Source: an uncultured Verrucomicrobiota bacterium
GTDB lineage: Bacteria; Verrucomicrobiota; Verrucomicrobiia; Limisphaerales; CAIMTB01
Direction of reading: 5' to 3'
Assembly (NCBI GenBank): GCA_942490575.1
Contig: CALNYA010000060.1
Span: forward strand, 1 to 32,000
DNA: 32,000 bases
The notes beneath the pieces are model-generated. The model searched no databases, was not told the origin of the DNA, and saw only the letters and a list, made by a program, of their open reading frames with translations. The position numbers were made by a program, and so were the translations under genes. This document shows, piece after piece, positions 2,346 to 25,177 of the stretch (positions within the stretch are counted from its first letter, which is position 1; every line of letters begins with the position of its first letter).

Positions 2346-2348
2346 AGA

Positions 2349-4717: not shown

Positions 4718-4726
4718 GCGCGATTC

Positions 4727-5365
4727 CTAGGCTTCCTTGGGCTGGCCGGCAAGCGGATGCCCGCCCGCCACGGCGCGGATTCGGTCCGCCGCCGCCGCCA
4801 GATCCTCCACAACCCACGCCCTCGCCTCCAAACCCGGGTTCGCGGCTTCCGTCTCCCGTCCGTAACCGGTCCGAACCAGGACGCTCGCCCGGACCCCCGC
4901 ATTCCATCCGCACTCGAGATCGGCGAGCTTGTCCCCGATCAAAAAGCTCCGGGAGAGGTCCACTCCGTAGGCGTCCCGGGCGTCGAAAAGAAACTGGGGC
5001 GAGGGTTTCCGTCCGCGACTCGGGGCTTCCGGCGCTTCCGGCGCGAAATAGATGTGCTCGAAACGAATCCCGTCGGAAAGCACCGACGCCTCCAGACGCC
5101 TGTTCACCGCGTGCATGTCCGCTTCGGTGTAGTAGCCGCGCCCGATGCCCGACTGGTTCGTCACCACGAACAACAGGAAACCCGCGTCCCGCAACCGCTT
5201 CAACGCCTCCGGAACACCCGGCAACAACGTCAGCCGCGCCGGATCGCTCAGGTAGTTCCGTTCGACGTTCAGCGTCCCGTCGCGGTCCAGGAAAACGGCC
5301 GGACGACGCTCCAGGACCACGTCCCGCCGCCGACCCGCATCGCCCGCTGTGATGGCTGTTCCCAT
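4727..5365 (-). CDS. gmhB: D-glycero-beta-D-manno-heptose-1,7-bisphosphate 7-phosphatase (HAD-IIIA)
   Basis: ORF 4727..5365. It has HAD motif I FLDRDGTLN, motif II VVTNQSGIGRG and a C-terminal IGDKLADLECGWNAG. It is adjacent to kdsB. Confidence 0.85.
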   Translation of the reverse strand: MGTAITAGDAGRRRDVVLERRPAVFLDRDGTLNVERNYLSDPARLTLLPGVPEALKRLRDAGFLLFVVTNQSGIGRGYYTEADMHAVNRRLEASVLSDGIRFEHIYFAPEAPEAPSRGRKPSPQFLFDARDAYGVDLSRSFLIGDKLADLECGWNAGVRASVLVRTGYGRETEAANPGLEARAWVVEDLAAAADRIRAVAGGHPLAGQPKEA

Positions 5366-5563
5366 GCCCGGATTACCCTGCCCGGTCTCCGCCCCGGCCT
5401 CAAGCGGCCTCGCCGAGGACCACCCCGGAACACCGAGCGCACGGAAGCGAGGGTGGATCGGGGGGACGAAGCGATCCGTGCCAACCGGCGGTTCCCCTCC
5501 CGTTCACCGCGACACTCCACTCCGCGCTCCACATCCGGCCGGGACTCGGGTAGGCTGCCGGCC

Positions 5564-6043
5564 GTGGATCCACTCCTGAAACTGATCCGGGAAAACGCCG
5601 CCCTGAAGCCCTCCCAACTGGCCGCCCTACTCGACAGCACCGAGTCCGAGATCACCGCCAGGATACAGGCCTTCGAGCGGGACCGCGTCATCCTGGGTTA
5701 CCGGACCGTCCTGAATGAGGAAAAGCTCGGTCGCGACATCGTCCGGGCGGTGATCGAGGTCAAAACCACCCCGGAACGCGGCGGCGGCTTCGACCGGCTC
5801 GCGGATCGCATCTCGAAGTATTCCGAGGTCGAATCCTGCTACCTCATGTCCGGCGGCTACGACCTCCTCGTCATCGTGATCGGCAACAACCTTCGGGAAG
5901 TGGCCAACTTCGTCTCGGAAAAGCTCTCCACGATCCAGGGCGTGATTTCGACCTCCACGCATTTCCTCCTGAAGCCTTACAAGGAGCAGGGCGTGCTCAC
6001 CTCCGGCCCGACCACGCTGGAACGACTGCCGGTGACGCCATGA
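5564..6043 (+). CDS. Lrp/AsnC family transcriptional regulator
   Basis: This is the C-terminal part of track ORF 4757..6043. An in-frame GTG at 5564 gives (M)DPLLKLIRENAALKPSQLAALLDSTESEITARIQAFERDRVILGYRTVLN...VIEVKTTPE...VESCYLMSGGYDLLVIV. That is an HTH plus RAM/AsnC_trans_reg domain of about 159 aa. The start codon choice is uncertain. Confidence 0.85.
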   Translation: MDPLLKLIRENAALKPSQLAALLDSTESEITARIQAFERDRVILGYRTVLNEEKLGRDIVRAVIEVKTTPERGGGFDRLADRISKYSEVESCYLMSGGYDLLVIVIGNNLREVANFVSEKLSTIQGVISTSTHFLLKPYKEQGVLTSGPTTLERLPVTP

Positions 6044-6095
6044 GGGCGATATGCTCCGTTGACGCGCCCCAAGGCGGTTCCCTAGCGTGACCGCC

Positions 6096-7154
6096 ATGCG
6101 CTTTCGCTCGTGGAGCGTCCTGACGTTGGTAGCCGCGCTGTGCCTTGTGCCACAGCGGGCTCCCGCTCCCCTCATCTACCGCCCAGGCGAAGGCTGGTCC
6201 TACGAACCCGAAGGCGGCGCCCGCTGGCAGCGCAACCGCGCCAAGGACCAACTCGAAGTCGCCCAGAAGGCGTTCGATGAAGGCAAGTTCCGCCTCGCAT
6301 CCAAGGCCGCCCGCCGCGTCACCAAGGTCTGGCCCCTCTCCGATTTCACGTCCCAGGCGCAGTACCTCGTCGGCCGCTCCTACGAGGAACGCGGCCGCCC
6401 CGACCGCGGCTTCAAGGCCTACCAAACGCTCATCGAACGGTATCCGAAACTCGAAAATTACGGCGAAGTCCTCCAGCGCCAGTTCGACATCGCCACCCTC
6501 TATCTCAACGGAAAGTGGTTCTACCTCTGGGGCTTCATCCCCGCCGGACCCGACCGCGACAAGGTCGTCGAAATGTACGAGAAACTCATCCGGAACGGGC
6601 CCTACAGCGATGTCGCGCCCAAGGCCCAGATGAACATCGCCGCCGCCCGGGAGAGACAGAAGGAATGGGAACTGGCCGTCCGCGCCTACGAACGCGCCGC
6701 CGACCGCTACAACGACCAGCCGGAGATCGCTTCCGAGGCCTTCTTCCTCAGCGGCATGGCCCACCTCCAGCAGGCCAAAGAGGCCGAATACGACCAGAGC
6801 GCCGCCGGCAAGGCCATCAACTCGTTCACCGATTTCATGGCCCTGTTCCCCGACGACCCGCGCGTCGCCGAATGCAGGAGCCGGATCATCGAGTTGTACC
6901 GCGTCCAAGCCAGCGGCAGTTACAACATCGCCCGGTACTACGAGAAACGCCGCCGTTACGACGGCGCCCTCATTTACTACAACGAGGTCGTCGATCTCTA
7001 CACCCGCCTCGTCAAGGAACCCAACGCCGAGGTCGCCGAGGAGGCCCGCGTGCGCATCGCCGACCTCAGCGCCCGACGCTCCCGGCTCAACGCCCCGGAA
7101 CCCGCGCCGCCGGCCGCTTCCTCCACCAACGCCCCGACCTCCACGCCCCCATGA
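6096..7154 (+). CDS. bamD: Outer membrane protein assembly factor BamD (TPR-type)
   Basis: Track ORF 6087..7154 (GTG 6087; ATG 6096 gives MRFRSWSVLTLVAALCLV as signal peptide). TPR-like helices with ...AQYLVGRSYEERG...YQTLIERYP...AQMNIAAARERQKEWELAVRAYERAADRY...SEAFFLSGMAHLQQ...FMALFPDDPRVAECRSRI... match the YfiO/BamD pattern. Confidence 0.8.
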   Translation: MRFRSWSVLTLVAALCLVPQRAPAPLIYRPGEGWSYEPEGGARWQRNRAKDQLEVAQKAFDEGKFRLASKAARRVTKVWPLSDFTSQAQYLVGRSYEERGRPDRGFKAYQTLIERYPKLENYGEVLQRQFDIATLYLNGKWFYLWGFIPAGPDRDKVVEMYEKLIRNGPYSDVAPKAQMNIAAARERQKEWELAVRAYERAADRYNDQPEIASEAFFLSGMAHLQQAKEAEYDQSAAGKAINSFTDFMALFPDDPRVAECRSRIIELYRVQASGSYNIARYYEKRRRYDGALIYYNEVVDLYTRLVKEPNAEVAEEARVRIADLSARRSRLNAPEPAPPAASSTNAPTSTPP

Positions 7155-9107: not shown

Positions 9108-9129
9108 TCCGACGCCCGGCGCATGCAAC

Positions 9130-9317
9130 GCCGGCTTTCAGCCGGCTCTGGCGGCTAGTAAGCCGCCTCTCCACGTCATCCTCCGTGGTCCCCCTCGTTT
9201 CCTCGATCAATCCCCCAGGAGCGGCGGCTTACCAGCCGCCGAAAAATGGCCAAACTCCTGCGCCGGCTTTCAGCCGGCCGACCGCGATCCTTCCAACAGA
9301 GCCGACTGAAAGTCGGC
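9130..9317. repeat. Cluster of five short GC-rich stem-loop (REP-like) units in an intergenic region
   Basis: The five units are GCCGGCT-TTC-AGCCGGC at 9130-9146 and again at 9262-9278, GGCGGCT-AGTA-AGCCGCC at 9150-9167, GGCGGCT-TACC-AGCCGCC at 9223-9240, and GCCGACT-GAA-AGTCGGC at 9301-9317. The last sits directly after the PiT stop codon (9319-9321) and may also serve as a terminator stem. Confidence 0.7.
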
Positions 9318-9318
9318 G

Positions 9319-10452
9319 CTACAGGGCGAACCAATTCATCAGGCGCACCAGGACGTATCCCAAACCGGCGGTGACCGGGATGGTGAAGAACCAGGCCCAG
9401 AGCATCCTCTCGACCACGAACCATTTCACCGCCTTCACGCTCTTCGCGGCTCCCACTCCCATGATCGCCGACGAAATGACGTGGGTCGTGGAGAGGGGAA
9501 TTCCCCAGTGACTGGCGACTCCGATGATCGTCGCGGCGGTGGTTTCCGCGGCGAATCCGTGGACGGGATGCAGCTTCACCATCTTGTGTCCAAGCGTCCG
9601 GATGATCCGCCAGCCTCCGGCGTAGGTGCCCGCCGCCATGGTCAGCGCGCAAACCACCTTGATCCACACGGCCACATGGAGGACCTGCCCTTCACCCGGG
9701 GCCGGGGTTTTCAGGAAGCTCAGCATCCCCGGCAAGTGATCGAAAGCCCCGCCCGTGGTGGCCGAGACCAGGGCCAGCGCGATGATGCCCATGGTCTTCT
9801 GGGCGTCATTCATCCCGTGACTGAAACCCATCCAGGCGCTGCTCAGAAGCTGCGCCTTGCCGAACACCGAATTGACCTTGCGCGGGCGCCAATTGCGCAG
9901 GCTGACGTAGAGCAGGCCCATCACCACGAGGCCGATCAGGAGGCCCAACAAAGGCGAGGTGAACATCGGAATGATCACCTTCGGGACCAGCCCACTCTGA
10001 ACTTCCACGGTCCCCGCCACCGAAGCGCCCGTGGCGGGATCGATCGAGGTGATCTTCTTGGTGCTGGTTTCGAGGAATTTGATGACGCCCCAGTTGTTGC
10101 CCGCCGCCGCGAGCGTGGATCCCACCAGGGCGCCGATCAGCGCGTGGCTGGAACTCGACGGCAGTCCCTTCCACCAGGTCAGAAGGTTCCAGGCGATCGC
10201 GCCCGACAATCCGCAAAGGATGGTGGCCGAGGTCACGTACGTGATGTCCACCAACCCCTTTCCGATCGTGCTGGCGACGGCCGCCCCGCTCAGCGCCCCC
10301 GCGAGGTTCGTGACCGCCGCCAGGACCACCGCCTGGCGCGGCGTCAGCACTTTCGTCGCCACCACGGTCGCGATCGAATTCGCCGTGTCGTGGAAGCCGT
10401 TGATGTACTCGAACACCAGCGCCACCAGGATGACGCAGACTATGAGCGTCAT
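9319..10452 (-). CDS. pit: Inorganic phosphate transporter, PiT (PHO4) family
   Basis: Track ORF 9319..10509. The likely start is the ATG at comp. 10450-10452 (MTLIVCVILVALVFEYINGFHDTANSIATVV), 5 nt after the upstream stop. Both PiT signature repeats are present: GFHDTANSIAT and SHGMNDAQKTMGII. Confidence 0.9.
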   Translation of the reverse strand: MTLIVCVILVALVFEYINGFHDTANSIATVVATKVLTPRQAVVLAAVTNLAGALSGAAVASTIGKGLVDITYVTSATILCGLSGAIAWNLLTWWKGLPSSSSHALIGALVGSTLAAAGNNWGVIKFLETSTKKITSIDPATGASVAGTVEVQSGLVPKVIIPMFTSPLLGLLIGLVVMGLLYVSLRNWRPRKVNSVFGKAQLLSSAWMGFSHGMNDAQKTMGIIALALVSATTGGAFDHLPGMLSFLKTPAPGEGQVLHVAVWIKVVCALTMAAGTYAGGWRIIRTLGHKMVKLHPVHGFAAETTAATIIGVASHWGIPLSTTHVISSAIMGVGAAKSVKAVKWFVVERMLWAWFFTIPVTAGLGYVLVRLMNWFAL

Positions 10453-10457
10453 GGCGG

Positions 10458-11087
10458 TCAGGAGTTCTTGAGCACGATATGGGTGACGATCGCTCCGACG
10501 TCCCGACAACGGTCGACGAGCTTCTCCAGGAGGTCGTACAGGTCCTTCCGCGCCAGGAACTGGCCGGGAGGCAGATTCGCGTGGTAGAGGTCGCGCACCA
10601 ACCCGTCCACCACCTTGTCCGCGGCGTCTTCCGTCGCCTCCAACCGGTCATTCAACTCCTTCACCCGCTCCAGCGGCGGCAGCTTCCGAAGGTCACGGAT
10701 CATCTCGCCCAAAATCGACACGGCCTGCTCGATCAACGCCGACTGCGGCTTGAAATTCACGCCCTGCACCAGGTCGCTCACCAGCCGGTATCGGTCGGCG
10801 AATTTTTCCGTCGTCTTCACCAGCTTGTAGAGCGCCCGTGACAAGGCCTCGATATCCTCCCGCTCCATGCCCGTGATGAAGGTCTGGACCAACTTCTCCT
10901 CGATCTCCTTCAGGAGCTTCCGTTCCCGCCGCTCGGAGCCGAGAAAGATGTCCAGGTTCGCCAACTGCGCATCCCCGTTGAGGATCGCCGTCAGGCTTTT
11001 CACGCTGGTCTTCGCCTCGTCGGCGCAGGCTTCCAGCAGGTCCAGGAAAACATCGTCTTTGGCGAGAAACCGTTGGAGGGAGAACAT
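10458..11087 (-). CDS. DUF47 / PhoU-like phosphate transport regulator that typically partners PiT
   Basis: Track ORF 10458..11135. The probable start is the ATG at comp. 11085-11087 (MFSLQRFLAKDDVFLDLLEACADEA...). It is all-helical and carries ...IEEKLVQTFITGMEREDIEALSRALYKLVKTTEKFADRY...DLYDLLEKLVDRCRDVGAIVTHIVLKN, typical of the YkaA/TIGR00153-type family. It lies directly upstream of PiT. Confidence 0.8.
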   Translation of the reverse strand: MFSLQRFLAKDDVFLDLLEACADEAKTSVKSLTAILNGDAQLANLDIFLGSERRERKLLKEIEEKLVQTFITGMEREDIEALSRALYKLVKTTEKFADRYRLVSDLVQGVNFKPQSALIEQAVSILGEMIRDLRKLPPLERVKELNDRLEATEDAADKVVDGLVRDLYHANLPPGQFLARKDLYDLLEKLVDRCRDVGAIVTHIVLKNS

Positions 11088-15332: not shown

Positions 15333-16010
15333 ATGACCCACTTCGAAGCCAGCATCGACGGCCTCCGGCAACAGCTCCTCACCATGGCCAGCTACGCCGC
15401 CGAGTCGATTCGCAACGCGGTCCGCGCGGTCGTCGAACGCGACGACGAACTCGGACGGCGAGTCGAGGAGGACGACTCGCTCCTCGACGACCTCGAGATC
15501 GCCATCGACGAACTCGCCATCCAACTCCTCCTGCGCGCGCCCCTCGCCCGCGACCTCCGCCTCATCATGGTCGCCACCAAGGTCAGCCACGACCTGGAAC
15601 GTGTCGGCGACGAAGCCACCGCCATCGCCCGGCGCGCCCGGGATCTCAACCGCGAACCGCAACTCAAGGCGCCGATCGACCTTCCCCGCATGGCCGCGAT
15701 GGTCTCCGAGATGCTGGCCGAATCCCTGGACGCCTTCGTCACCGGCGATTGCACCCGCGCCCGCGCCATCGTTCCGCGCGACAAACAAGTCGACGGCCTC
15801 AACAAACAACTCCAGAGCGAGCTCACCGCGCTGATCGTCGAATCCCCTGGAAACACGACGCGCTGCCTCAACCTCATGGCGATCAGCAAACGCCTCGAAC
15901 GCATCGGCGACCACGCCAAGAACATCGCCGAGGAGGTCGTCTACCTGCACGAGGCCACCGACATCCGCCACACCCAGCGCGTGGCCCCGGACGGCCCATG
16001 CGCCTCCTAG
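15333..16010 (+). CDS. phoU: Phosphate signalling complex protein PhoU
   Basis: ORF 15333..16010. It has two PhoU repeats with ...DDLEIAIDELAIQLL...ARDLRLIMVATKVSHDLERVGDEATAIA... and ...LMAISKRLERIGDHAKNIAEEVVYL. It lies immediately after pstB. Confidence 0.92.
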   Translation: MTHFEASIDGLRQQLLTMASYAAESIRNAVRAVVERDDELGRRVEEDDSLLDDLEIAIDELAIQLLLRAPLARDLRLIMVATKVSHDLERVGDEATAIARRARDLNREPQLKAPIDLPRMAAMVSEMLAESLDAFVTGDCTRARAIVPRDKQVDGLNKQLQSELTALIVESPGNTTRCLNLMAISKRLERIGDHAKNIAEEVVYLHEATDIRHTQRVAPDGPCAS

Positions 16011-17236
16011 TCGCGACCCGCCAGCTCGGTTTCGGAGGCGGCGTCGAAACCCATCTTCAGTCCGTCCTGCCGCTCCTTCACGCCGCCGGCCATTCCCTCG
16101 CCCTTCTTCACGAACAGTCCGCCCCCGAGGGCCTCGATCTCGTCCTCGAAAGCGCCCCGCCGATCCCGCGCATCGCCACGACGGGACGCCCGATCCGCGC
16201 CGTCCTCGCCGACGTTCAGGCCTTCGCCCCGGATTGGATCTACAACCATGGCCTCGACGACCCCAACCTCGAGGACCACCTGACCCGCCGGTTTCCGGCG
16301 CTCCTCTTCGCCCACAATTACTACGGGATCTGCGTCAGCGGCACCCGCTGCCACGCCGGCCGCGAAGTCATCCCGTGCCGGCGCGCGTTCGGCGCGGCGT
16401 GTCTCGCCGTCTACCTCCCCCTGCGCTGCGGGGGCCGAAACCCCTGGACCATGATCCAGCGCTACCGGATCGAGGCCCGCCGCCACGCCATCCTCCGGCG
16501 CTACGCGGCCATCCTCGTCGCCAGCCGGCATGTGGCGTCCCAGTTCGAACGGAACGGCATCGATCCCGCCCGGATCCATCGCGTGCCCCTCTTCCCACCC
16601 GGCGTCGTTCCCGCCCCCGCCCCGCCCGCGCCGAGACCGCCCACCGGCCGGGTTCTCTTCCTCGGCCGCGTCACTCCCCAGAAAGGCCTCGACCACCTCG
16701 TCCCCGCCCTCGTCCAGGCCCAGGCCAGCCTGGGTCGCCCGCTCCAACTCGTGGTCGCCGGCGACGGACCCGAACGGGACGGCCTTCTCGCCGTCGCGGA
16801 GCGGGATGGACTCGCCACCGAAGCGCTGGGGTGGATCACGCTCGCCCAGCGGAACCAGATCCTGGCCGGCATCGATCTCCTGGCGGTTCCCAGCACGTGG
16901 CCGGAGCCGTTCGGCCTTGTCGGGCTTGAAGCGGCCTGCCTCGGGGTTCCCTCCGCGGGCTACGCGTCCGGTGGAATCCCCGAGTGGCTACTACCCGGCG
17001 TGACCGGGGAATTGGCGACCGGGATTCCCCCAAAACCTGAATCGCTCGCCCGCGCCGTCGCGCGGGCCCTCGGGGACCCCGCGCATTGGCAGGCCCTGCG
17101 TCGAGGCGCCTGGGAACACGCCCGCGCCTGGACCCCCGAAGCCCACCTCGCCCGACTCCTCGGCGTGATCGCCTCCCTCACGGGTCGGGAGGAGGGGCGG
17201 CTTACCAGCCGCCCTCGGGCATCCGGCGGCTCGTAA
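15998..17236 (+). CDS. Glycosyltransferase family 4 (GT-B fold)
   Basis: ATG 15998 within track ORF 15749..17236; it overlaps the phoU end by 13 nt. The sequence reads MRLLVATRQLGFGGGVETH...VLFLGRVTPQKGLDHLV...LVVAGDGPE...DLLAVPSTWPEPFGLVGLEAACLGVPSAGYASGGIPEW. The last ~15 codons and the stop run into the REP-like hairpins at 17196-17242. Confidence 0.8.
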   Translation: MRLLVATRQLGFGGGVETHLQSVLPLLHAAGHSLALLHEQSAPEGLDLVLESAPPIPRIATTGRPIRAVLADVQAFAPDWIYNHGLDDPNLEDHLTRRFPALLFAHNYYGICVSGTRCHAGREVIPCRRAFGAACLAVYLPLRCGGRNPWTMIQRYRIEARRHAILRRYAAILVASRHVASQFERNGIDPARIHRVPLFPPGVVPAPAPPAPRPPTGRVLFLGRVTPQKGLDHLVPALVQAQASLGRPLQLVVAGDGPERDGLLAVAERDGLATEALGWITLAQRNQILAGIDLLAVPSTWPEPFGLVGLEAACLGVPSAGYASGGIPEWLLPGVTGELATGIPPKPESLARAVARALGDPAHWQALRRGAWEHARAWTPEAHLARLLGVIASLTGREEGRLTSRPRASGGS

Positions 17237-17289: not shown

Positions 17290-17374
17290 CAAAAGACCTG
17301 TCCCTTGGTCGTGCCTCCCTTCGCGATGGCAAGTTCCAGATCATGGCCGGGTGCCTGGGGCGAGGCGGAGCGCC
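17290..17374. repeat. Dispersed repeat element, copy 1 (conserved 36-nt core at 17339-17374)
   Basis: The core GATCATGGCCGGGTGCCTGGGGCGAGGCGGAGCGCC matches 25142-25177 at 35 of 36 positions in the same orientation. The roughly 50 nt to the left show weaker similarity to 25088-25141. The core supplies the last 10 codons (ALRLAPGTRP) and the stop of the minus-strand gene 17341..18867. Confidence 0.65.
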
Positions 17375-18867
17375 ATTTCGTAACCCGCATCCGCCAGAAG
17401 CTTCGGGAACCGCCGGACATTGTCGCGGTCCCATTGTTTCACGTCGTCTCCCAGCCTGGGATCATCCCACCCGACAAGATACGGGCTGCGTCGCTGGGCG
17501 GAATCGCGCGCTTCGGCGTGGTGCCAGCCCGACTGCAACCGCTCCACGACCCAGCGGCCGTGCTCCATTTCCGCCATTCGTTCGATCACCTCGTCGGAAA
17601 AACTGGGACATCGGATCGGTCCCGAGGCGGGACGCACCTCGTATCCGACCGACCTGAGGATGCTTCGCATGGAGTCGATCTGGTCGAGATTGGACTGCCG
17701 GAGATCCGGGTCGAGGTGCTCCCAGATCCGCATCGCCCGGTCCTGGTTCTTGTGACGGTTCTCTTCCAGGAATCGGGCGTGAATGAATCGCGCGAGCCGC
17801 TCCCGATCCTCCGGCCCCAAGCCGGAGGCCGTCGCATCCGGCGCGCCGCCGTGGATGAACGCGCGGACCGACATGGCGTCGTCGGGAAGGACGATGACTC
17901 CCTGGAACTCGTGGGCCTGGATCTCCTGTTCCAGGACGTCCGCCTCGCGGCCACTGGCGCGGACGATGGCGACCCGGGCGCCCAGGGCCCAAGCAAAGCG
18001 GTATTCGAGCGCGGCGATCGAACCGCCGTTGATGCCCAGGACGCGCACATCCTCCGGCGCGATGCCGGAATCGAGAATGTCGAGCCAGTATTGGATCGGT
18101 TCCAACGCGGAAAACCGGTCCCGGTGCTTGCCGTTCCGGAGTTCGTGATACCGTTCGTCCCGGGTGGCTGTACCGTTCGCCGGCAACGATTTCGGCAGGT
18201 AACCGATCGTGTGGATCCGGTCGACGCGGGATTCCCCCAGTTCACCCACCAGTCCACAGACTCCTTCCCGCGTGCCGCCTGAAATGAGGGTCCCCTCGAA
18301 ATCCGCGAACCCGCGTCGCAGCAGGTCGCGATACCCGTCGAGATCGCCTGTGCGCGCCGGGTCGCAGCCCCCCGCCACGATGACCACGGGTCCTTGGATC
18401 GGGGGCTTGTCGGCGGTCGCTCGCCGACGCACCTCCTCGAGGGACGCGGCGTCCGGGAAGCGCGCGGCCAGGGCCGCGACGAGAAACCGCTGGACGCATT
18501 GAACGTCGTGACGATGGGGATCCGCCGACCCCAGCAAGCTGGCGGTCTTGAGCGCCGAATCCAGAAAAGACCGGACTTGGGGCCGTTGAACCGCGCGGGC
18601 CAAGGCCGCCAGGCATTCCCATTCGTGCTCAGGGCCCAACAGCAACCGGAAAGCCGCGATCCGATAGATGGCCCACGGGATATTGACCCCGACCGCGATC
18701 TGGTCCTCGCAGGTCCGAATCGCCTCTTCGAGGCTCGGCTGAAGGAGCGGGACGAATCCGGTGTCCCGGTCGACCACGATCCGCTGGCGAACGTATCCGC
18801 CCAGAGCCGCCGGGTCGGACAGCTTTGTCCGAAACGCATCCTGGGAAAAGCGAGCATCGGGATTCAT
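17341..18867 (-). CDS. SLOG (LOG/LSDAT-like) domain protein with a C-terminal tandem RyR-domain module
   Basis: ORF 17341..18867, 508 aa. It has a helical N-region, then the Rossmannoid segment GPVVIVAGGCDP...GTLISGGTREGVCGLVGELGE...IGYLP...RVLGINGGSIAALEYRFAWALGARVAIVRASGREADVL. Two RyR-type repeats follow: RLARFIHARFLEEN...IWEHLDPDLRQSNLDQIDSMRSILRSVGYEV and ERMAEMEHGRWVVERLQSGWHHAEARD...SPYLVGWDDP...DVKQWDRDNVRRFPKLLADAGYEM. Domain calls are by eye from motif patterns. Confidence 0.7.
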   Translation of the reverse strand: MNPDARFSQDAFRTKLSDPAALGGYVRQRIVVDRDTGFVPLLQPSLEEAIRTCEDQIAVGVNIPWAIYRIAAFRLLLGPEHEWECLAALARAVQRPQVRSFLDSALKTASLLGSADPHRHDVQCVQRFLVAALAARFPDAASLEEVRRRATADKPPIQGPVVIVAGGCDPARTGDLDGYRDLLRRGFADFEGTLISGGTREGVCGLVGELGESRVDRIHTIGYLPKSLPANGTATRDERYHELRNGKHRDRFSALEPIQYWLDILDSGIAPEDVRVLGINGGSIAALEYRFAWALGARVAIVRASGREADVLEQEIQAHEFQGVIVLPDDAMSVRAFIHGGAPDATASGLGPEDRERLARFIHARFLEENRHKNQDRAMRIWEHLDPDLRQSNLDQIDSMRSILRSVGYEVRPASGPIRCPSFSDEVIERMAEMEHGRWVVERLQSGWHHAEARDSAQRRSPYLVGWDDPRLGDDVKQWDRDNVRRFPKLLADAGYEMALRLAPGTRP

Positions 18868-18949
18868 GATTTACCCGGAGCTTCCGCGACCGCTCGGCGG
18901 CGTCAATGGCGCAAGGCATGACCCGGCCGTCGTCCGAGGTCGACGCCGT

Positions 18950-21727
18950 TCAGCCCTCTTCGGCTCGGACGCGAGTCGCCGGAACAATCCGAAATCCGGC
19001 GGCATCCAGGTGGCGACCGATCGCGCGGACGGCTTCCCGGTCCTTCTCGCGGGCGGCTCCAAGCTCCTCCCACGGACGCAGGCAATCATGGATCCGCCGC
19101 CGGTCGTCGCGCTTCGGGCCGTACACCCAACCTTCGCGCCGCTTCTCGGCCATCCAGCGTTCGTGTTCCCGCCGCGCCAGAGGCTCCACCTGCCGGGCCG
19201 TCAACCGGATCGCGGCGCCCCTGGCGCCGATCCGCTCCTCGAACGTGAGTCCGATCGAGAGCAACTGCGCCGGAATCTGGTTCGCCTGACCTCGGTTCGA
19301 CTCCTTCACGTCTTCCGGAAGCTTGTCCCACCGCTGGTGCGTCCGCTTCTTCGGATCATAGGTCCGGTCCCGCCGCCGCGCCTTGAGGTAGATCTCGTGG
19401 ATCGCCCGGGCCACACGATCGACGTCGTTCCCGAACGGCGACGGATGCCGCGCGAGGCCGAGGAATTCCTGGGCCGGAGCGTGCATCGTGAGTTGGTCCG
19501 GCGCCGGCAGGCAGGACGCGTCCAGAGAGGGACGTCCGCTGAAGGAACTCATCTCCAGCAGCGCCACCAGCGAACGCACGCCATGCCGCGGATGAGACAC
19601 CTGCAGGAACGCCCGCAACACTCCCGTGTCGATGGGCACCCGTCCCGCCGGGTCCATCATCGCGGCCGCCTTGGTCTTCAACTGAAATCGCAGCACGAGG
19701 GCCCGCCGCAACAAGACCGCCACCGATCCTGGCAACCGGTCGTGCGCGATGTCGGGAACATCGACGTGCCCCCGCAGCCGGCTGACAAAGTCCGGCCCCT
19801 TGCAGTCACGGAACGCATCCGCCTGGGCGTCCTCCCTCCGCGAGGCCTTGGGCGCCGGCGCCCCCGAATCCGGGGCCGATCCACGGTGCGCCGGGAGCGG
19901 GCGGATGAATTCCGCGTAGGTGCCCGCCGTTCCACCCGCGAAGATGAACACCGCCTTCCCGATGGGGTGGGCGGCGCCTCGATCGATGAATTCCCCGTCC
20001 TGCATCGGCGCCAGAAAATAGCGCAGCCATCCCAACTTCTGACCACGCAGCGCGGCATCGAATTCGTCGAAGAACACCAAGGGCACCACCCCGCGCAGTC
20101 CCTGGTCCCGAACCAGGTGGAGCGCCGCCGCCAACTCCTCCGGGTCACCGAACTGCGACACGTTGAAGGTGAGGGTCTCGATGACCGTCTTCCCTCGCAC
20201 CGATTCGGCGACTTCCGAAACCGCGAAGGACTTGCCGGAGCCGGGCGGCCCGAAGACGGCGAGGCTCAGCGGGCGCTTCGCCGCGGGTCGTTCGAGGTAT
20301 TCCCGCAGCAGGTGGCTGATCGCCCGGTAGGTTTCGATCTCCGCCCGATCGTAGGTGCGCAGGTCGTGGAAGACGCCCAAGGGCGCCGCGCCGAGCGCCG
20401 CCGCGCGACCGGTTCGAACCAGATCCATCGCCACCTCCAACGCCGAGGCTCCGGCGGGTAGGAGTGTGTCGAGGATGGCCCAAGGCACGCCCGCGTCACG
20501 GCCCCCGGTCACGGCGGGAATCCGGAGAAAGGGGAAATCCGCGCGGGTGGTCCCCGCGAAAAGATCACGTCCCGGGTACGCCGGAGCTCGAATACTCCCG
20601 AAGCCGAGCTCGAGCAACCGGCGCCCGGCTCCCAACCCGCACCGGATGCCGTCCACGATCGCCGACGGCGGCTCGGCGTCGTCCGAAGTCGCCCACCCAC
20701 CGGCCTCACGCTCCGCCGCGGCCAGCCTTCCCGCCACCGCCGCCACGAACGCGGAACCGAACCCCACCATGCCCCCGCGCCGCCGGGCCAGGTGCCCGTG
20801 CAGGAACCCGCCTTCGATGCCCATGGGGTCGTAAACCAACCAGGCCTCGGGCAAGCGACGCGAACCCGAATTCATTCGATACACGGCCCCATCCAGACCG
20901 AAGCGGACGATCAGATGCCGGCACTCGTGAAGCGAGGCGAAGGTCGCGTTCCCCGCCAATTCGCGAACGAGATCCAGCGCGGTGCTTTCCCAGGAAAGCC
21001 CCCGGCTGACGATCGCCCCGGCGAAACGCAGATCGTCGGCATCGACGATCACGATCAAACGGTCGCCGTGGCGCCGGCAAACCTCGTTCCAAAGCGGGTT
21101 CGAATCGCGGAAGGTCGGGTCGGAAACATCCGAGACCGGCAACGGCCGGTGGAGCTTGTACACCACCCAAGGCTTCGCCCCCGGCGTTGTGAGGGCCTTC
21201 GGCCAAAGATCCCGCCGATGCCGAAAGCTGTTGCCCGTGTCGTCGAGCACCACGAGCCCGGCCTCGGGAACGTCTCCGGGAAGAGCGGGAGCGAGGCGGG
21301 GATCGCCAAGGTCCGGACCGGAATAGCCGTGCGCGCGCGCAAGGCGGGCGACGTCGCCGTCGGCCACGGCTTCCAGGATCGAATGCACCAGGTCCTGGCG
21401 CTTGAGGCCGGGCAGTTCCTCATCCGACAGCGGAAGGTCCGGCGCCCGAGTCCCGGACGGATCCACCGGCCGCGGGATGACAGGGCCGACAACGGATCGC
21501 CCTTCGCAGGCTTCGGCGACCCACCGCGACAGCAGCAGGGCGCCGCCCCGCAGGTGATGGGTCCGCGTTTCGCCGGTGAGACGCCAGTTGGGGATGACGG
21601 CGTCCGGGGATGACGGCCGCGGCATGGGCACGCCAACGACATCGAGACAGATGTCGCCGGCGACCACCACGGGAGAGGGGAGGGAAGGCGACGAGAGCGA
21701 GGACCGGCGGCTAGCAGGGTTGGGCAT
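18950..21727 (-). CDS. Multidomain protein: ribokinase/PfkB-like domain, AAA+ ATPase, C-terminal tandem RyR-domain module
   Basis: Track ORF 18950..21898. The likely start is the ATG at comp. 21725-21727 (MPNPASRR..., 925 aa), because the upstream 57 codons are Arg/His-rich junk. PfkB-like features are VVVAGDICLDVVG, LRGGALLL, LVVLDDTGN, LIVIVDADDL and GGMVGFGSAFVAAVAG. AAA+ features are Walker A AVFGPPGSGKSF (comp. about 20228-20251), Walker B VVPLVFFDEFD, FIFAGGT and DFVSRLRG. RyR repeats are VDRVARAIHEIYLKA...RWDKLPEDVKESNRGQANQIPAQLLSIGL and EPLARREHERWMAEKRREGWVYGPKRDD...HDCLRPWEELGAAREKDREAVRAIGRHLDAAGFRIV. Confidence 0.75.
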   Translation of the reverse strand: MPNPASRRSSLSSPSLPSPVVVAGDICLDVVGVPMPRPSSPDAVIPNWRLTGETRTHHLRGGALLLSRWVAEACEGRSVVGPVIPRPVDPSGTRAPDLPLSDEELPGLKRQDLVHSILEAVADGDVARLARAHGYSGPDLGDPRLAPALPGDVPEAGLVVLDDTGNSFRHRRDLWPKALTTPGAKPWVVYKLHRPLPVSDVSDPTFRDSNPLWNEVCRRHGDRLIVIVDADDLRFAGAIVSRGLSWESTALDLVRELAGNATFASLHECRHLIVRFGLDGAVYRMNSGSRRLPEAWLVYDPMGIEGGFLHGHLARRRGGMVGFGSAFVAAVAGRLAAAEREAGGWATSDDAEPPSAIVDGIRCGLGAGRRLLELGFGSIRAPAYPGRDLFAGTTRADFPFLRIPAVTGGRDAGVPWAILDTLLPAGASALEVAMDLVRTGRAAALGAAPLGVFHDLRTYDRAEIETYRAISHLLREYLERPAAKRPLSLAVFGPPGSGKSFAVSEVAESVRGKTVIETLTFNVSQFGDPEELAAALHLVRDQGLRGVVPLVFFDEFDAALRGQKLGWLRYFLAPMQDGEFIDRGAAHPIGKAVFIFAGGTAGTYAEFIRPLPAHRGSAPDSGAPAPKASRREDAQADAFRDCKGPDFVSRLRGHVDVPDIAHDRLPGSVAVLLRRALVLRFQLKTKAAAMMDPAGRVPIDTGVLRAFLQVSHPRHGVRSLVALLEMSSFSGRPSLDASCLPAPDQLTMHAPAQEFLGLARHPSPFGNDVDRVARAIHEIYLKARRRDRTYDPKKRTHQRWDKLPEDVKESNRGQANQIPAQLLSIGLTFEERIGARGAAIRLTARQVEPLARREHERWMAEKRREGWVYGPKRDDRRRIHDCLRPWEELGAAREKDREAVRAIGRHLDAAGFRIVPATRVRAEEG

Positions 21728-22127
21728 GGTCGAGGCGGACCATCGGTCCCTAGCAGATCCTGATCGGTGGCGGCAAGAATGAGCTCTTGGCTGCGAGAAC
21801 CATCGACCCACGATTGGACAGGCATCGAGCCCATGTATCGGTTCGCGCGGATGGATGCGCCGCTCCATGAGGAAGGGTTCGCGAGCCCGGGGGATCACGA
21901 ATCGTCCGCTGTCCTATCACGCCCAAGTCCCCCCGGGGAAGGAACGGCCTCGCGCCTCCAGCGAGGCCGCCTCCCCAAAATTTCGGGAATGGATCCCGGT
22001 CAGAGCGCTGAGGTCTGGGTGGGAAGCCCGGGCTTGAAAAGAAGGGGGCTCGCGCCCAACGTCCCGCGAGTGGATTCCCTACCCATCGCGGGCGTCTGGA
22101 ATACTCCACCGCGACAGCTCGAACCGC

Positions 22128-23255
22128 ATGTCCATGGCTGAGCGCCGGCGAATCCTGCTCGTCGACGATGACCCCGACATCCTGGAGTTGTACCGGGAAC
22201 TCCTCGGCGGCCTGCCTGATGCTCCGGATGTCCAAACGGCGGAATCCGGAGAAAAGGCCCTGGAACTGATCTCTTGCGAGGAATTCACCGCGTTTATCGT
22301 CGACCTGAGCATGCCCAAGATGAATGGGCTACAGCTCGTCGCGAAAGTTCGTGAACTGCGGCCCAGGTTGCCGGTCGCCGTGCTCACCGCGCTGGCGGAC
22401 CCAGAGTCCGAGCGTATCGCCACAGGACTAGGCGTTGATTGCTTTCTACAAAAGCCTTCCTCCTCCATTGATGTGGGACGGCTGCTGCGGTCCATCGAGT
22501 CACTCTTGACCCGACGTCCGCCCGGGCCAATCGAGCCGAAGTCCGAAGTCGCGCCGCGGCTGCCGAACTCGGCCCCGCCAGCCCACGAAGACCTTTATCC
22601 ATTCCTCATGGGCGGCCTCCTGCACAACGCGCTGAACACCCAGATGAGCCTCAACGGTCAGCTTGAAGTCCTTCAACGTTCCAGTCCCGGCGCTCCGATC
22701 AACGCCACGGCCCGGGCGCGTCTCCAAGCGCAGGTCTCCCATCTGGGGGCCTATTTGCGGCTGATGCAGGAGATTTCACGCGACTTTTATGCGGCCGACG
22801 AGGGATCTGGTTCCACCGAACAACTCGATGTGCTTTGCGAGGAGATTTCCAACCAACTGCCTCATGTCACTTGGGCTTTTTCGATCGGATCGGTCGACGA
22901 CCGCCCCCCTCTCCCCGCGGGATTGATGGCCTTTGTGGTCAGCGAACTGCTCCACAACGCGGGTCAGGCCTGCGGCCACCTGGGCGACCCGCGCGTGTCG
23001 CTGACCGTCGCGAACGACGGGCGGCAACGACTGACTCAAATCGAGTGCTCGGACAACGGCCCAGGCCTGCCAACCGGAATCCTGTCGGACATCCAACAAC
23101 AGCGCCTGCGCGCGCCGAAAACTGCCGGGACCGGCGGATACGGCCTGTTCCTCGTGCAGGAATTGACGACTCGGCTGAACGGACGTTTTCATGCGTTCAA
23201 TCCCGAGGACGGCGGGGCTTGCCTGCGGGTGCTGCTGCCCTGGGACGTGAAGTAG
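22128..23255 (+). CDS. Cytoplasmic hybrid receiver-histidine kinase (REC-DHp-HATPase_c)
   Basis: ORF 22128..23255. REC features are ILLVDDDPD, FIVDLSMPKMNG, VAVLTA and FLQKP. The H-box-like segment is LMGGLLHNALNTQMSL, the N-box is VSELLHNAGQA, G1 is DNGPGLP and G2 is GTGGYGLFLVQ. There is no TM segment or recognisable sensor domain other than REC. Confidence 0.85.
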   Translation: MSMAERRRILLVDDDPDILELYRELLGGLPDAPDVQTAESGEKALELISCEEFTAFIVDLSMPKMNGLQLVAKVRELRPRLPVAVLTALADPESERIATGLGVDCFLQKPSSSIDVGRLLRSIESLLTRRPPGPIEPKSEVAPRLPNSAPPAHEDLYPFLMGGLLHNALNTQMSLNGQLEVLQRSSPGAPINATARARLQAQVSHLGAYLRLMQEISRDFYAADEGSGSTEQLDVLCEEISNQLPHVTWAFSIGSVDDRPPLPAGLMAFVVSELLHNAGQACGHLGDPRVSLTVANDGRQRLTQIECSDNGPGLPTGILSDIQQQRLRAPKTAGTGGYGLFLVQELTTRLNGRFHAFNPEDGGACLRVLLPWDVK

Positions 23256-23263
23256 GAGCCATC

Positions 23264-24058
23264 ATGGATCGGACTGAAAAGCTGACGTTGCTGGTCGTGG
23301 ACGATCAGAGCGAGGTCTTGGACGTGTACCGCGACGTCCTGCAGGAAGGACTGAAGCACGAAGTGGAGTGCGTCTGCATGCCGGCGGAAGCGCTTCATCT
23401 GGCCCAGCACCGTCTCTTCGACATGGCGATAATCGACGCCAAGATCCCGTACCGGCAGGCCCCGCTCGGGGGACTCCTGCTGGCCGAGGACATCGGCCGG
23501 ATCCTGGGTTCCCATTCGGTCCTCCTGATGTCCCAATATGACCTCCGCGGTCAGGTGTCCCAGTTCAACTCCAACTTCCGCTTCCTAGCCAAGCCTCGGC
23601 CGGAGCAGTCCATCGTTTTATGGGCGGAGAAGGTGCTGCTCGAAAAAGTGAAATCCATGGTGAGAAGCCAGTACGGCTTCGTAGTCATGCCTTACGGACG
23701 GACGGAGTGTGACCGATGGTACCAGGACACACTGTCGCCATGGATGCATGAGGCCGGATATGCTCTCAGACGAATGGATGAAATTGCGACCGTCAAAGCC
23801 ATCAACGTCGAACTCCTCAACCGGATCCGCGACGCTCACTTCGTCGCGGTCTACATCCCGTTCGAGAATCCCAACGTGTACTTCGAAGCCGGTTTCGCGA
23901 TGGCCTTGGAGAAGTTCCTACTGCTCTTCTCCCCCAATCGGGAAAGCCTCCCCTTCGACATCCGCGCGAATCGCGTCTTCCACACCTCCGACGGCGGAAC
24001 CCAATCCGCGAGGGCGGAGCTGGTCAATTTCATGCGCGCCCTTCGGGGAATTCACTGA
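23264..24058 (+). CDS. Response regulator with a C-terminal nucleoside 2-deoxyribosyltransferase / DNPH1 (Rcl)-like domain
   Basis: ATG 23264 within track ORF 22835..24058, preceded by AGGAG at 23254-23258, and 8 nt after the kinase stop. REC features are LLVVDDQSE, MAIIDAKIP, VLLMSQ and FLAKP. The C-domain (about 23669-24049) reads YGFVVMPYG...WYQDTLSPWMHEAGYAL...INVELLNRIRDAHFVAVYIPFENPNVYFEAGFAMALEKFLLLFSP...LPFDI. It has the beta-alpha pattern and the conserved Glu of the N-(deoxy)ribosyltransferase-like fold. Confidence 0.7.
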   Translation: MDRTEKLTLLVVDDQSEVLDVYRDVLQEGLKHEVECVCMPAEALHLAQHRLFDMAIIDAKIPYRQAPLGGLLLAEDIGRILGSHSVLLMSQYDLRGQVSQFNSNFRFLAKPRPEQSIVLWAEKVLLEKVKSMVRSQYGFVVMPYGRTECDRWYQDTLSPWMHEAGYALRRMDEIATVKAINVELLNRIRDAHFVAVYIPFENPNVYFEAGFAMALEKFLLLFSPNRESLPFDIRANRVFHTSDGGTQSARAELVNFMRALRGIH

Positions 24059-24139
24059 TCGGGCGGCGGGAGCCCCCGGATCGAAACGCGCGAAGGGATT
24101 TCTTCCACAGTCGGTGACTCAAGGGACGAAGCGCGGAGT

Positions 24140-24394
24140 TCAATTCTTTGTGATACCCATCAGCTTCTCCCATTCCCCGCTAAAGAGCCTGATGTTGTCC
24201 GAGATCTTTGGAGGCTGCTCCAGCACCTTGCCCATCAGCCGATCCGCCATCTCGGGATTCATGCGGGTCAGTTCCGCCGCCGCGACCACGAGAGCCAGGC
24301 AATTGTTGATGTCGTGCCTCACCGTGGAGAGGTGGCGGTTGAGCATGTCGATCTGCTCAACGCTCAGGGTGACCGGACTGGTCGGCAGCTGCAT
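24140..24394 (-). CDS. Small stand-alone DHp (HisKA-like) protein, possible phosphotransfer or kinase-modulating protein
   Basis: This is the C-terminal 84 codons of track ORF 24140..24604, starting from ATG (comp. 24392-24394): MQLPTSPVTLSVEQIDMLNRHLSTVRHDINNCLALVVAAAELTRMNPEMADRLMGKVLEQPPKISDNIRLFSGEWEKLMGITKN. It has an H-box of the RHDINN type followed by a second helix, and no ATPase domain. The upstream part of the ORF is Gly/Arg-rich and unconvincing. Confidence 0.5.
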   Translation of the reverse strand: MQLPTSPVTLSVEQIDMLNRHLSTVRHDINNCLALVVAAAELTRMNPEMADRLMGKVLEQPPKISDNIRLFSGEWEKLMGITKN

Positions 24395-24619
24395 GCCGGG
24401 ACCATTCACTCCACGGCCGGCCCCCGCAAGGGGAGGGTAGCCCAGTTCAAGCCTGATCGAATGACCCCCGGGTGTCCCGCTGGACAAAAGCTGGAACGAC
24501 GCCAAATCCGCCGAGAAGGTTGCTCGCTGACGGTGGTGAATTGGTCCGTGGGTGATTGCCGCGACGCCCCCTCGGCCACCTTGGCTTGTGCAAATCGACG
24601 ACAAGCGGAGGCGATCTCT

Positions 24620-25057
24620 TCAAACACCTTGCCGTCGCAACACGAACTCGCGAACGGTGGGGGCGAGATCGAGCACTTCGAACTCCGCCCGCGCGACCCA
24701 TCGGAACTCACTGTGCTCCGCGGAAAGCTGAAGCTCACCCGCGACTCGTTCGACGACGTGATGGAGGCTCACGATCTTCACCCGATCCAATTCGAGTTCC
24801 GTGGCACCCAATAGGGCGCCGACCACGACCTCGAAGCCGACCTCTTCCCGCACCTCGCGGCGCAGCGCGTCCTCGATCGTTTCGCCGGCGTTCAGTTTGC
24901 CCCCGGGCAGTTCCCATTGACCCCCGAATCGTTTCGAATCAATTGCCCGACGGAGGAACAGGACCTTTCCATCGCCGTCGCGAAGCACCGCGCGCACGGA
25001 GATTCCCCGAGCTTTGCCAGCGGGAATGCCCGACGGCGGCGACGGAGCGGCGAACAT
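24620..25057 (-). CDS. NUDIX hydrolase (MutT-like)
   Basis: Track ORF 24620..25147. The likely start is the ATG at comp. 25055-25057 (MFAAPSPP...), because the first 30 codons fall inside repeat copy 2. The Nudix box is GGQWELPGGKLNAGETIEDALRREVREEVGF. Confidence 0.85.
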   Translation of the reverse strand: MFAAPSPPSGIPAGKARGISVRAVLRDGDGKVLFLRRAIDSKRFGGQWELPGGKLNAGETIEDALRREVREEVGFEVVVGALLGATELELDRVKIVSLHHVVERVAGELQLSAEHSEFRWVARAEFEVLDLAPTVREFVLRRQGV

Positions 25058-25087
25058 TTCCGAGGGTTTGACGCGCGGGTGGTTTTC

Positions 25088-25177
25088 GCAAGAGGTCTTG
25101 CCTTTGGCTCCGAGCGGACCGCCCTCCTGCTCGCAATTCCCGATCATGGCCGGGTGCCTGGCGCGAGGCGGAGCGCC
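25088..25177. repeat. Dispersed repeat element, copy 2 (conserved 36-nt core at 25142-25177)
   Basis: The core GATCATGGCCGGGTGCCTGGCGCGAGGCGGAGCGCC differs by one base from 17339-17374 and has the same orientation. It supplies the C-terminal ALRLAPGTRP and stop of gene 25144..25827, and a spurious N-terminal extension to the NUDIX ORF. Confidence 0.65.

Follow-up and report, generated by a model that had tools for sequence, protein, structure and literature searches.

Candidate nucleotide-binding R12 modules in a PfkB-like/AAA+ protein and an adjacent LSDAT-SLOG protein from a Verrucomicrobiota contig

The DNA considered here, hereafter the window, is a 32,000-nucleotide stretch from an uncultured Verrucomicrobiota bacterium (contig CALNYA010000060.1 of GenBank assembly GCA_942490575.1, positions 1 to 32,000). 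Two adjacent genes on its minus strand, termed A (18950..21727, 925 residues) and B (17341..18867, 508 residues), encode proteins that end in the same tandem of ryanodine receptor-type repeats, the RyR or R12 module. In A the module follows a PfkB-like fold and an AAA+ core; in B it follows TPR-like helices and an LSDAT-type SLOG domain, the product being a variant without a RelA/SpoT homologue (RSH) domain. Our leading reading, held tentatively and at slightly less than an even chance, is that one ADP-ribose (ADPR)-type or adenine nucleotide binds in the R12 pocket of both A and B, which would act as its receptors or regulators. As judged from sequence, the network in which they take part is probably conflict-related and probably anti-phage.

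The R12 fold of RyR domains was shown in 2026, in preprints and for phage counter-defence proteins only, to bind or cleave the cyclic ADPR (cADPR) signals of Thoeris. Cellular bacterial RyR-domain proteins are numerous, and the A/B locus gives a candidate context for their role, with a strictly conserved pocket fused to an AAA+ motor, a SLOG sensor, a TrkA_N domain that binds nicotinamide adenine dinucleotide (NAD), or an alarmone synthetase. If R12 were a host-side receptor, nucleotide-based immunity would gain a new class of effectors or regulators, signalling of the (p)ppGpp and ADPR types would be connected, and the nucleotide pocket of animal RyR R12 would be given an evolutionary context. 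The A-B pair itself is uncommon and head-less; the A family and the R12-linked network around it are large, uncharacterised and testable via cultured plasmid carriers.

The R12 module common to A and B

The Pfam RyR profile (PF02026) matches both products above its gathering threshold of 27.4 bits (A 50.2 bits, B 40.4 bits), and the A and B family profiles match structures of RyR1-3 and of Bacteroides thetaiotaomicron RyR with E 1e-27 to 1e-30. The Pfam match covers the second, canonical repeat, located in A at residues ~843-922 (18962..19201, minus strand; Pfam residues 846-914, 3e-13) and in B at residues ~421-503 (17359..17607, minus strand; 3.7e-10), where Foldseek also returns RyR3 Repeat12. 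The first repeat is missed by Pfam and was recognised by hhalign. It is divergent in A (residues ~768-842, 19202..19426, minus strand), where it retains H777, Y/F780, W800 and N811, and occupies residues ~352-420 of B (17608..17814, minus strand), with H363, W382, S392 and N393 conserved. Comparison of the first repeats of A and B by hhalign gave P=99.7% and E=1e-26, that of the second repeats P=99.8% and E=2e-30, bearing out the claim of an earlier sequence-only reading of this DNA that the two kinds of repeat, and their order, are shared by both proteins. First and second repeats match each other at 95-97% (within A, P=95%, E=4e-8). On these profile comparisons repeat 1, a copy of repeat 2 that has diverged, is a genuine RyR repeat, and the whole unit is a Repeat12-like tandem. 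The AlphaFold2 (AF2) model of B superposes over ~200 columns, spanning both repeats, on RyR3 and RyR1 Repeat12 with target-normalised template modelling (TM) scores of 0.5-0.6.

Three sets of experimental data exist for the corresponding pocket. The phage glycosidase RyDEP, which has the R12 fold, cleaves 2'/3'cADPR in a pocket made up of H75, W78, H100 and D117, while other phage RyDEP homologues act as nanomolar sponges (PMC13232231). RyR Tad binds 1''-3' glycocyclic ADPR (gcADPR) with a Kd of 43 nM via H129/W132, K147/H154 and K170/D171 (10.64898/2026.06.04.730250). The pocket of human RyR3 R12 binds ADP and AMP-PCP (PMC12627627), and nucleotide binding by RyR3 R12 can also be read from the titles of PDB entries 6uhh and 9l9b, both of which are Foldseek matches of B.

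By motif and spacing, as opposed to superposition on RyDEP, repeat 2 of A carries the same pocket. Residues H855, W858, H880 and D896 are present in 46 of 46 sequences despite an overall identity of ~45%, and their spacing (H, +3 W, +25 H, +41 D) is that of RyDEP H75/W78/H100/D117 and also fits RyR Tad H129/W132/H154/D171. In repeat 2 of B the corresponding positions H436, W439 and D480 are found in 42/42, 39/42 and 41/42 sequences, respectively. The nucleotide-centred interpretation offered from the sequence alone is supported.

Domain architecture and families of A and B

The two co-directional minus-strand open reading frames (ORFs), of 925 and 508 codons and 82 nucleotides apart, are as previously described. 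The ORF of gene A in fact extends over 18950..21898 (minus strand), open to a GTG at 21898, with an internal ATG at 21727 yielding the 925-residue form. Since an alignment with 45 homologues places family start sites 11-20 residues ahead of a conserved VAGDxCLD motif, the shorter form is the likely product. The spacer between the genes (18868..18949, 82 nucleotides) contains no terminator-like and no sigma-70-like match, and co-transcription of A and B is plausible. The motifs GPPGSGKS, LVFFDEFD, ISGGTREGVCGLVGE and INGGSIAALE are all found in the A and B translations. Gene A has 510 relatives at E<=1e-3, the best 120 of which align nearly end to end (39-48% identity, query coverage mostly 97-99%), and gene B has 183 relatives in the database. 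With these numbers of homologues, A and B are real genes as opposed to chance ORFs of GC-rich DNA. Long antisense ORFs of up to 566 residues lie opposite them, e.g. 18761-20461 and 20792-21613 on the plus strand, and are regarded as shadow ORFs typical of GC-rich DNA, not as genes. The GC content at third codon positions (GC3) is 0.79-0.80 for A and B (0.79 for B) and 0.72-0.80 for genes across 17.3-25.1 kb, compared to 0.85-0.90 in the neighbouring pst, phoU and kdsB genes. Overall GC drops to 0.60-0.62 just past A (22000-25000), compared to 0.65-0.72 elsewhere in the window. This lower GC and GC3 weakly suggests a horizontally acquired island.

All domains named in the sequence-only reading were recovered, the PfkB-like domain by structure only. 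For the latter (residues 1-462 of A, 20342..21727, minus strand), an AF2 model built from an alignment of 16 family members has a mean predicted local distance difference test (pLDDT) of 84 and a predicted TM (pTM) of 0.88. The top 50 Foldseek matches in the PDB are all ribokinase-family proteins (E 5e-9 to 1e-6, target-normalised TM 0.44-0.59), among them HldA, pseudouridine kinase, ribokinase, LacC and ketohexokinase. No Pfam PfkB match (PF00294) was obtained for A at E<=1, and the 16-sequence family profile, searched at E<=10 against PDB sequences, did not return any ribokinase; the fold was recovered only via structure prediction and Foldseek.

The active site of this domain is non-canonical. 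The alignment shows that the N-terminal G-D-x-x-x-D and GG motifs of PfkB kinases are retained, and that a ~20-residue insertion precedes the anion-hole helix. At the N-terminus of the helix formed by residues 323-342, where PfkB kinases have GAGD, the family carries G-F/Y-G-S, with G324 and S325 at least 90% conserved. This correspondence was drawn from motif and secondary structure, and places a Ser at the inferred position of the catalytic Asp, which is absent. NxxE is likewise not matched, although on a looser reading of the motif DDLR occupies the expected position. The altered GAGD and NxxE motifs therefore lead us to treat the domain as a ribose- or nucleoside-type binding domain and not as a proven kinase, and on its residues it is probably a binding domain.

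The AAA+ P-loop core with its helical region spans residues 463-760 of A (19448..20341, minus strand). The Pfam AAA match (PF00004) is marginal, at 23.2-25.5 bits compared to a gathering threshold of 21.2, and AAA_16 is matched with E=6e-7. The residues of Walker A (GPPGSGKS) and Walker B (VFFDEFD, hhhhDE) are invariant across the A-family alignment. The nearest solved relatives are the classical AAA proteins Rpt2, p97 and spastin, which are only weakly similar.

A search with the PfkB-like domain of A retrieved, after clustering at 50% identity, 1,284 clusters with a cut-off of E<=1e-3, of which 742 remain at E<=1e-10. Among the matches listed, most are 820-1,000 residues long and the shorter ones mostly align to part of the domain; the whole A architecture thus constitutes a sizeable, coherent family. 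This family of about 740-1,280 clusters appears to be undescribed, its records being named 'AAA family ATPase', 'RyR domain-containing protein' or 'hypothetical' and nothing else. A scan of representative genomes with a single sequence gave mostly R12-only matches, three of which extend past the R12 module. No full-length A homologue was found among the phage sequences searched, and two were found on plasmids. Two variations of the family were seen: locus L116 holds two A-family paralogues in tandem (1178-3913 and 4509-6746), and in L072 (12158-13069) an A homologue carries two R12 modules in series at its C-terminus, i.e. four repeats.

The AF2 model of the whole B protein has a pLDDT of 92 and a pTM of 0.91. 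Residues 1-150 (18418..18867, minus strand) form eight helices in the model; from model and homology they represent the distal half of a TPR segment found in the family, with 50% identity to the TPR segment of the homologue P0122. Residues 151-345 (17833..18417, minus strand) form a Rossmannoid SLOG domain of the LSDAT or TRPM N-terminal type, for which Foldseek returned the N-terminal regions of TRPM2, 3, 4, 5 and 8 (E 5e-5 to 1e-3, probability 1.00). We take the matched TRPM region to be MHR1/2, where the LSDAT SLOG domain is located. Pfam LSDAT_prok (PF18171) scores 2.5e-4 and 20.8 bits in B, below its cut-off of 25.4, and has precomputed matches in many B homologues. Residues G197, G198, G202, G281, G282 and E288 of the SLOG domain are invariant in the family alignment.

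The B domain layout given from the sequence alone stands as read, while the fuller form of the family carries a RelA/SpoT head that it did not include. Homologues are mostly ~830 residues long, with RelA_SpoT (PF04607) first, followed by TPR repeats. With the family profile, matches to small alarmone synthetases (RelQ/RelP, YjbM/YwaC) were obtained at E 1e-17 to 1e-19, and the RSH head also matches the PADLOC defence candidate PDC-S33. These RelA/SpoT-TPR-SLOG-RyR proteins are annotated solely as 'RyR domain-containing protein' or 'ppGpp synthetase'. B aligns to P0122 with E=1.5e-143 and 51% identity over 97% of its length, and corresponds to the C-terminal ~510 residues of the ~830-residue homologues. 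As B starts inside the TPR segment, contains no PF04607, and no RSH match was obtained by tblastn across the 32 kb, it is an RSH-less variant and therefore an atypical form. We considered whether such proteins form a separate A-linked subfamily and rejected this, given that the short homologues P0125 and P0186 are full-length genes split by assembly or frameshift and that P0212 (691 residues, no RSH match, no RelA_SpoT ORF upstream) has no A nearby. Only L073 resembles the window, an independent metagenomic locus in which an RSH-less SLOG-R12 gene, split by a stop codon, lies 1.6 kb upstream of an A homologue.

NUDIX genes flank full-length B-family genes in L025, L050 and L051, as well as the frameshift-split locus L049. 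ClpB-like, YbjN, TIR-STAND and TrkA_N genes also occur near B-family genes. A ClpB-like double-AAA protein and a YbjN-family protein recur beside the full-length genes (L050 498-3483; L051 3942-6764).

Neighbourhoods of the A family and competing readings

The flanks of A were searched in a set of 87 loci, comprising 80 metagenomic loci, six from genomes or assemblies, and the window. Two-transmembrane (2TM) SLATT_1/SLATT_3 proteins of ~550-600 residues lie near A in 26 of these, mostly abutting it. A cluster of 40 NLR-like proteins of at least 300 residues contains 18 with DUF4062 and 20 with NACHT, accompanied by TPR or WD40 arrays, and A homologues often have TIR-like proteins (DUF4062, TIR_2) nearby. 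A second R12 protein, most often TrkA_N-R12, is found near A in 14 of the 87 loci. Total flank amounts to 6 kb or more in 45 loci, 30 of which have at least one recurrent partner. Plasmid pA of Methylobacterium sp. FF17 carries an A gene that adjoins a SIR2 protein of more than 2,000 residues, and on the Clostridium estertheticum plasmid pCF009-b A stands alone. The accessions of A genes from cultured carriers are WP_216126931.1 and WP_264051538.1. The sequence-only reading saw no toxin or pore-forming domain, which is correct for the window; elsewhere the commonest neighbours of the A family are SLATT 2TM and DUF4062/TIR-NACHT proteins. These A-family neighbourhoods are of the conflict type and support the reading of A and B as nucleotide receptors. 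The neighbours are variable, so A is best seen as a hub with changing conflict-type partners, of which A-B is one rare combination.

The SLATT partners share a ~230-residue N-terminal domain with the motifs RIGVTGHR, PLAEGADR and GGTAEIV (examples are L054 5811-7397, L072 7798-9621, L110 3261-4973 and L112 12215-13861). From these motifs one may guess that the domain is SLOG-like. At L046 (13469-15493), 2.6 kb downstream of an A homologue, lies a fusion of a TIR_2 domain with a phosphofructokinase (PFK) domain; on its domain matches this is another pairing of TIR with a sugar-kinase fold.

We propose that an adenine nucleotide or a nucleotide derived from NAD (ATP/ADP, ADPR or an isomer of cADPR), either made by TIR proteins or shifted by stress, would occupy the R12 pockets of A and B, with the PfkB-like domain of the former and the SLOG domain of the latter as possible further binding sites. 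On binding in A, it would control whether the AAA+ module assembles or hydrolyses ATP, and this module would then act on a partner. For most A relatives that partner would be a SLATT membrane effector encoded next to A or an NLR-like protein of the DUF4062/TIR-NACHT kind; in the window it would be B, which, lacking the alarmone-synthetase head, could serve as a non-enzymatic co-sensor, buffer or scaffold. A nearby NUDIX enzyme would clear ADPR-type products. In keeping with this proposal, the small island of signalling and conflict-type genes around A and B also contains the gene for a TIR-like REC protein, and its NUDIX product matches a PADLOC candidate. As the His/Asp dyad is intact, signal hydrolysis, i.e. 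an off-switch, is an alternative role for the R12 module of A. A bolder version, in which cellular R12 domains form a new receptor class for TIR-made cADPR-type immune signals and A is a signal-gated AAA+ component of an R12-linked network, strikes us as possible but rather unlikely. It would have A work with SLATT pores, DUF4062/TIR-NACHT proteins, TrkA_N-R12 proteins and RelA/SpoT-SLOG-R12 synthetases, and would make phage RyDEP and RyR Tad pirated copies of a host receptor domain.

A number of observations weigh against the receptor reading. At the pocket, placed by spacing, S461 replaces the second (phosphate-binding) His in repeat 2 of B, and Asn replaces the catalytic Asp in the first repeats of both proteins. 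PADLOC v2.0 and NCBIfam searches with A and B yielded no system match (IetA E=0.074 and QatA 0.22, through the P-loop only). An LSDAT-SLOG-R12 gene occurs within 6 kb of A in 3 of the 87 loci, namely the window, L073 and L025, the last with a full RSH form of B and a NUDIX gene beside it; the two-gene arrangement put forward from the sequence alone is hence not a conserved system, the genes being largely non-adjacent elsewhere. Large NLR-like (STAND/repeat) proteins are counted near A in up to 29 of 87 loci, a figure inflated by clustering driven by TPR and WD40 repeats. Fifteen of the 45 loci with sufficient flank have no recurrent partner, which together with the rarity of A-B adjacency indicates that A is evidently able to function by itself. 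Neither Pfam at E<=5 nor hhalign against the SLOG domain of B identified the N-terminal region of the SLATT partners as a SLOG domain. Within the window, the TIR-like gene near A belongs to a cassette that occurs without A or B in L136, L138 and L139, the genes outside the A/B, REC-TIR-like and NUDIX region are housekeeping (including kdsB, bamB/D, phosphate, arsenic and redox genes), and no integrase, repeat boundary or mobile-element marker was seen.

The alternative that survives best, which we nevertheless consider unlikely, assigns A and B to housekeeping: they would sense adenylate, NAD(H)/ADPR or alarmone levels in a stringent-response-like network with the RelA/SpoT heads, NAD-binding TrkA_N proteins and NUDIX. 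RyR3 R12 binds ATP/ADP and has been proposed as a metabolic sensor (PMC12627627; 10.64898/2026.06.04.730250). The small-alarmone-synthetase heads of the B family fit such a network, as does TrkA_N-R12 being the commonest R12 partner of A, and in L044 and L048 a lone A is found amid sugar-metabolism genes. In the window, A adjoins pst/phoU and two-component genes with no mobile elements. The abutting SLATT proteins and the DUF4062/TIR-NACHT giants, however, are hallmarks of conflict and not of metabolism. Furthermore, both the RSH head and the NUDIX protein match PADLOC candidates (PDC-S33 and PDC-S07), the neighbours are patchy, an A gene on a plasmid lies beside a giant SIR2 protein, and GC3 falls below that of the flanks.

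The matched R12 modules had been suggested to mediate hetero-association or to recognise a common ligand. In the first case they would be docking adaptors, akin to effector-associated domains (EADs), that join A and B such that the AAA+ motor remodels or activates B, a scheme we regard as improbable. It draws on the presence of the same two-repeat module at both C-termini of adjacent co-directional genes, and on the homodimerisation of single-repeat phage and bacterial R12 proteins via helices alpha1 and alpha4 (PMC13232231; 10.64898/2026.06.04.730250). Other R12 proteins near A in 14 of the 87 loci likewise recall the EAD arrangement (PMC7159879). In the B model, the two repeats of one chain superpose on the Repeat12 pseudo-dimer, so the usual dimer interface would be used within the chain. 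In 12 A/partner pairs, the normalised score between adjacent R12 modules was 0.268 compared to 0.251 for non-partners, with mixed ranks and the window pair at 11/12. EAD-style co-evolution of adjacent modules was accordingly rejected, partners not being closest relatives. In addition, the invariant residues are in the pocket and not in surface patches, and most A genes have no R12 partner at all. The conserved pocket and the lack of pair-specific similarity therefore indicate that the shared module is best read as a ligand pocket; of the two proposals, the common predicted ligand pocket is favoured over the hetero-association adaptor.

That B is merely the decayed remnant of a full-length gene, its 5' half deleted and its adjacency to A accidental, is very improbable: B does cover only the C-terminal part of its homologues with no RSH remnant in the window, other short homologues are split genes and A-B adjacency is rare, but all 508 codons of its ORF are uninterrupted, its own ATG lies 82 nucleotides past the A stop codon, the model is confident, GC3 is gene-like, all family-invariant SLOG and R12 residues are kept, L073 independently pairs an RSH-less SLOG-R12 gene (though stop-split) with an A homologue, and P0212 likewise has no RSH match or upstream RelA_SpoT ORF.

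Described relatives and other genes of the window

The domains of A and B are each of known kinds, and within the literature searched no described system holds a PfkB-like-AAA+-R12 protein. No account of such a protein was found in a search whose coverage excluded the founding SLOG/SLATT paper, so that a prior in-silico mention is possible; nor was any paper found that combines RyR with SLATT, PfkB or RelA. The statement that the pair corresponds to no named system is hence in line with the PADLOC, NCBIfam and literature results.

For the R12 module, the closest described proteins are phage RyDEP and RyR Tad, with which A and B have PF02026 in common and whose H, +3 W, +25 H, +41/42 D pattern is complete in repeat 2 of A. 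Models of phage RyR-domain proteins in a viral fold library gave weak structural matches (probability at least 0.96, E 0.03-0.1), none with E<=1e-3. RyDEP and RyR Tad differ in being single-repeat homodimers of ~110-280 residues that act in counter-defence, whereas A and B are cellular proteins with two differentiated, fused repeats, a predicted pocket, and AAA+/PfkB-like or SLOG domains attached. Eukaryotic RyR Repeat12 shares the tandem two-repeat architecture, on which the B model superposes, together with adenine-nucleotide binding (PMC12627627). In contrast to eukaryotic RyR, A and B have no channel context, and their first repeat is shortened, with Y/F in place of W and N in place of D.

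B has the TPR, SLOG and R12 body in common with the RelA/SpoT (small alarmone synthetase)-TPR-LSDAT SLOG-RyR proteins, and is missing the ~300-residue synthetase head and about half of the TPR segment of the full-length family. The SLOG fold binds ADPR in TRPM2 and 3'cADPR in ThsA. TRPM2, which combines an LSDAT SLOG with NUDT9-H, and ThsA of type I Thoeris thus use SLOG as an ADPR- or cADPR-type sensor, and by analogy the SLOG domain of B may do likewise. The SLOG-Nudix pairing of TRPM2 is echoed by the NUDIX genes next to B-family genes, directly beside B in each of the three full-length loci covered (L025, L050 and L051) and 5.7 kb from the B start codon in the window. Unlike TRPM2 and ThsA, B has no channel or SIR2 output attached, and its LSDAT_prok score is below the cut-off.

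At the level of whole systems, the closest analogue of the commonest context of the A family is the TIR and SLATT combination of type VII Thoeris, in which a SLATT effector (ThsH) has been shown experimentally to answer TIR-made cADPR (10.64898/2025.12.03.692087). SLATT is the commonest abutting neighbour in the A family, and TIR-like proteins are frequent. The window, however, has no SLATT gene, A is without counterpart in any described Thoeris type, and the SLATT partners of A, at ~550-600 residues with the N-terminal domain described above, differ from that of type VII Thoeris. Ribokinase/PfkB kinases share the overall fold of the A N-terminal domain, yet their sequence profiles miss A, which has Ser for the Asp of GAGD. 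EAD adaptor pairs provide the principle of coupling between adjacent proteins, in a paper that does not mention RyR (PMC7159879, Kaur et al. 2020); adjacent EAD copies are closest relatives, which the R12 modules of A and its partners are not.

Divergent from A lies a hybrid kinase-like gene (22128..23255, plus strand) with a receiver (REC) and a HATPase_c domain (Response_reg 9.5e-21, HATPase_c 1.7e-11), followed by a gene for a 264-residue protein (23264..24058, plus strand) in which REC is joined to a TIR-like or deoxyribosyltransferase-like domain. The latter matches the PADLOC profile 'Effector TIR' with 7.7e-7 and Pfam Nuc_deoxyrib_tr with 0.0019, below cut-off, and is 1.5 kb from A. The order and abutment of the two genes are kept in L136, L138 and L139, where the homologues are 44-76% identical. 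Judged by its domains, the pair seems to be a two-component module, so far uncharacterised, whose output is TIR-like. The REC-TIR-like gene is a possible signal generator, but its homologues form a cassette of their own independently of A and B, and its functional link to them is therefore unproven. In L136 a YbjN gene (10078-10590) also adjoins the cassette.

A NUDIX hydrolase is encoded at 24620..25147 (minus strand; Pfam NUDIX 6.5e-23, PADLOC candidate PDC-S07 1e-24). With the NUDIX proteins that flank B-family genes in L049, L050 and L051 it shares 37-43% identity. It is a tentative candidate for a signal-degrading partner of A and B. Taken together, the REC-TIR-like and NUDIX proteins might resemble a signal generator and a signal-clearing enzyme. 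Between these genes, a 154-residue ORF (24140-24604, minus strand) with no Pfam or PADLOC match carries the motif 'VRHDINNCLALV', which resembles an H-box, and could represent a free-standing dimerisation and histidine phosphotransfer (DHp) domain of a histidine kinase.

On the other side, a group-1 glycosyltransferase gene (15749-17236, plus strand) is convergent with B, and its product matches PF20706, 'GT4 in conflict systems', at 37.6 bits compared to a cut-off of 26. Genes for phosphate uptake (PHO4, PhoU_div, pstCAB, phoU) form a cluster in the left half of the window, with a tRNA-Ser (9109-9181, minus strand; anticodon AGA according to ARAGORN) located between a BamB-like gene and the PHO4 phosphate transporter. 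The right end is formed by an arsenic and redox cluster containing an ArsP permease, an SBF/ACR3-like protein, ArsA, an FMN reductase, DsbD and thioredoxin.

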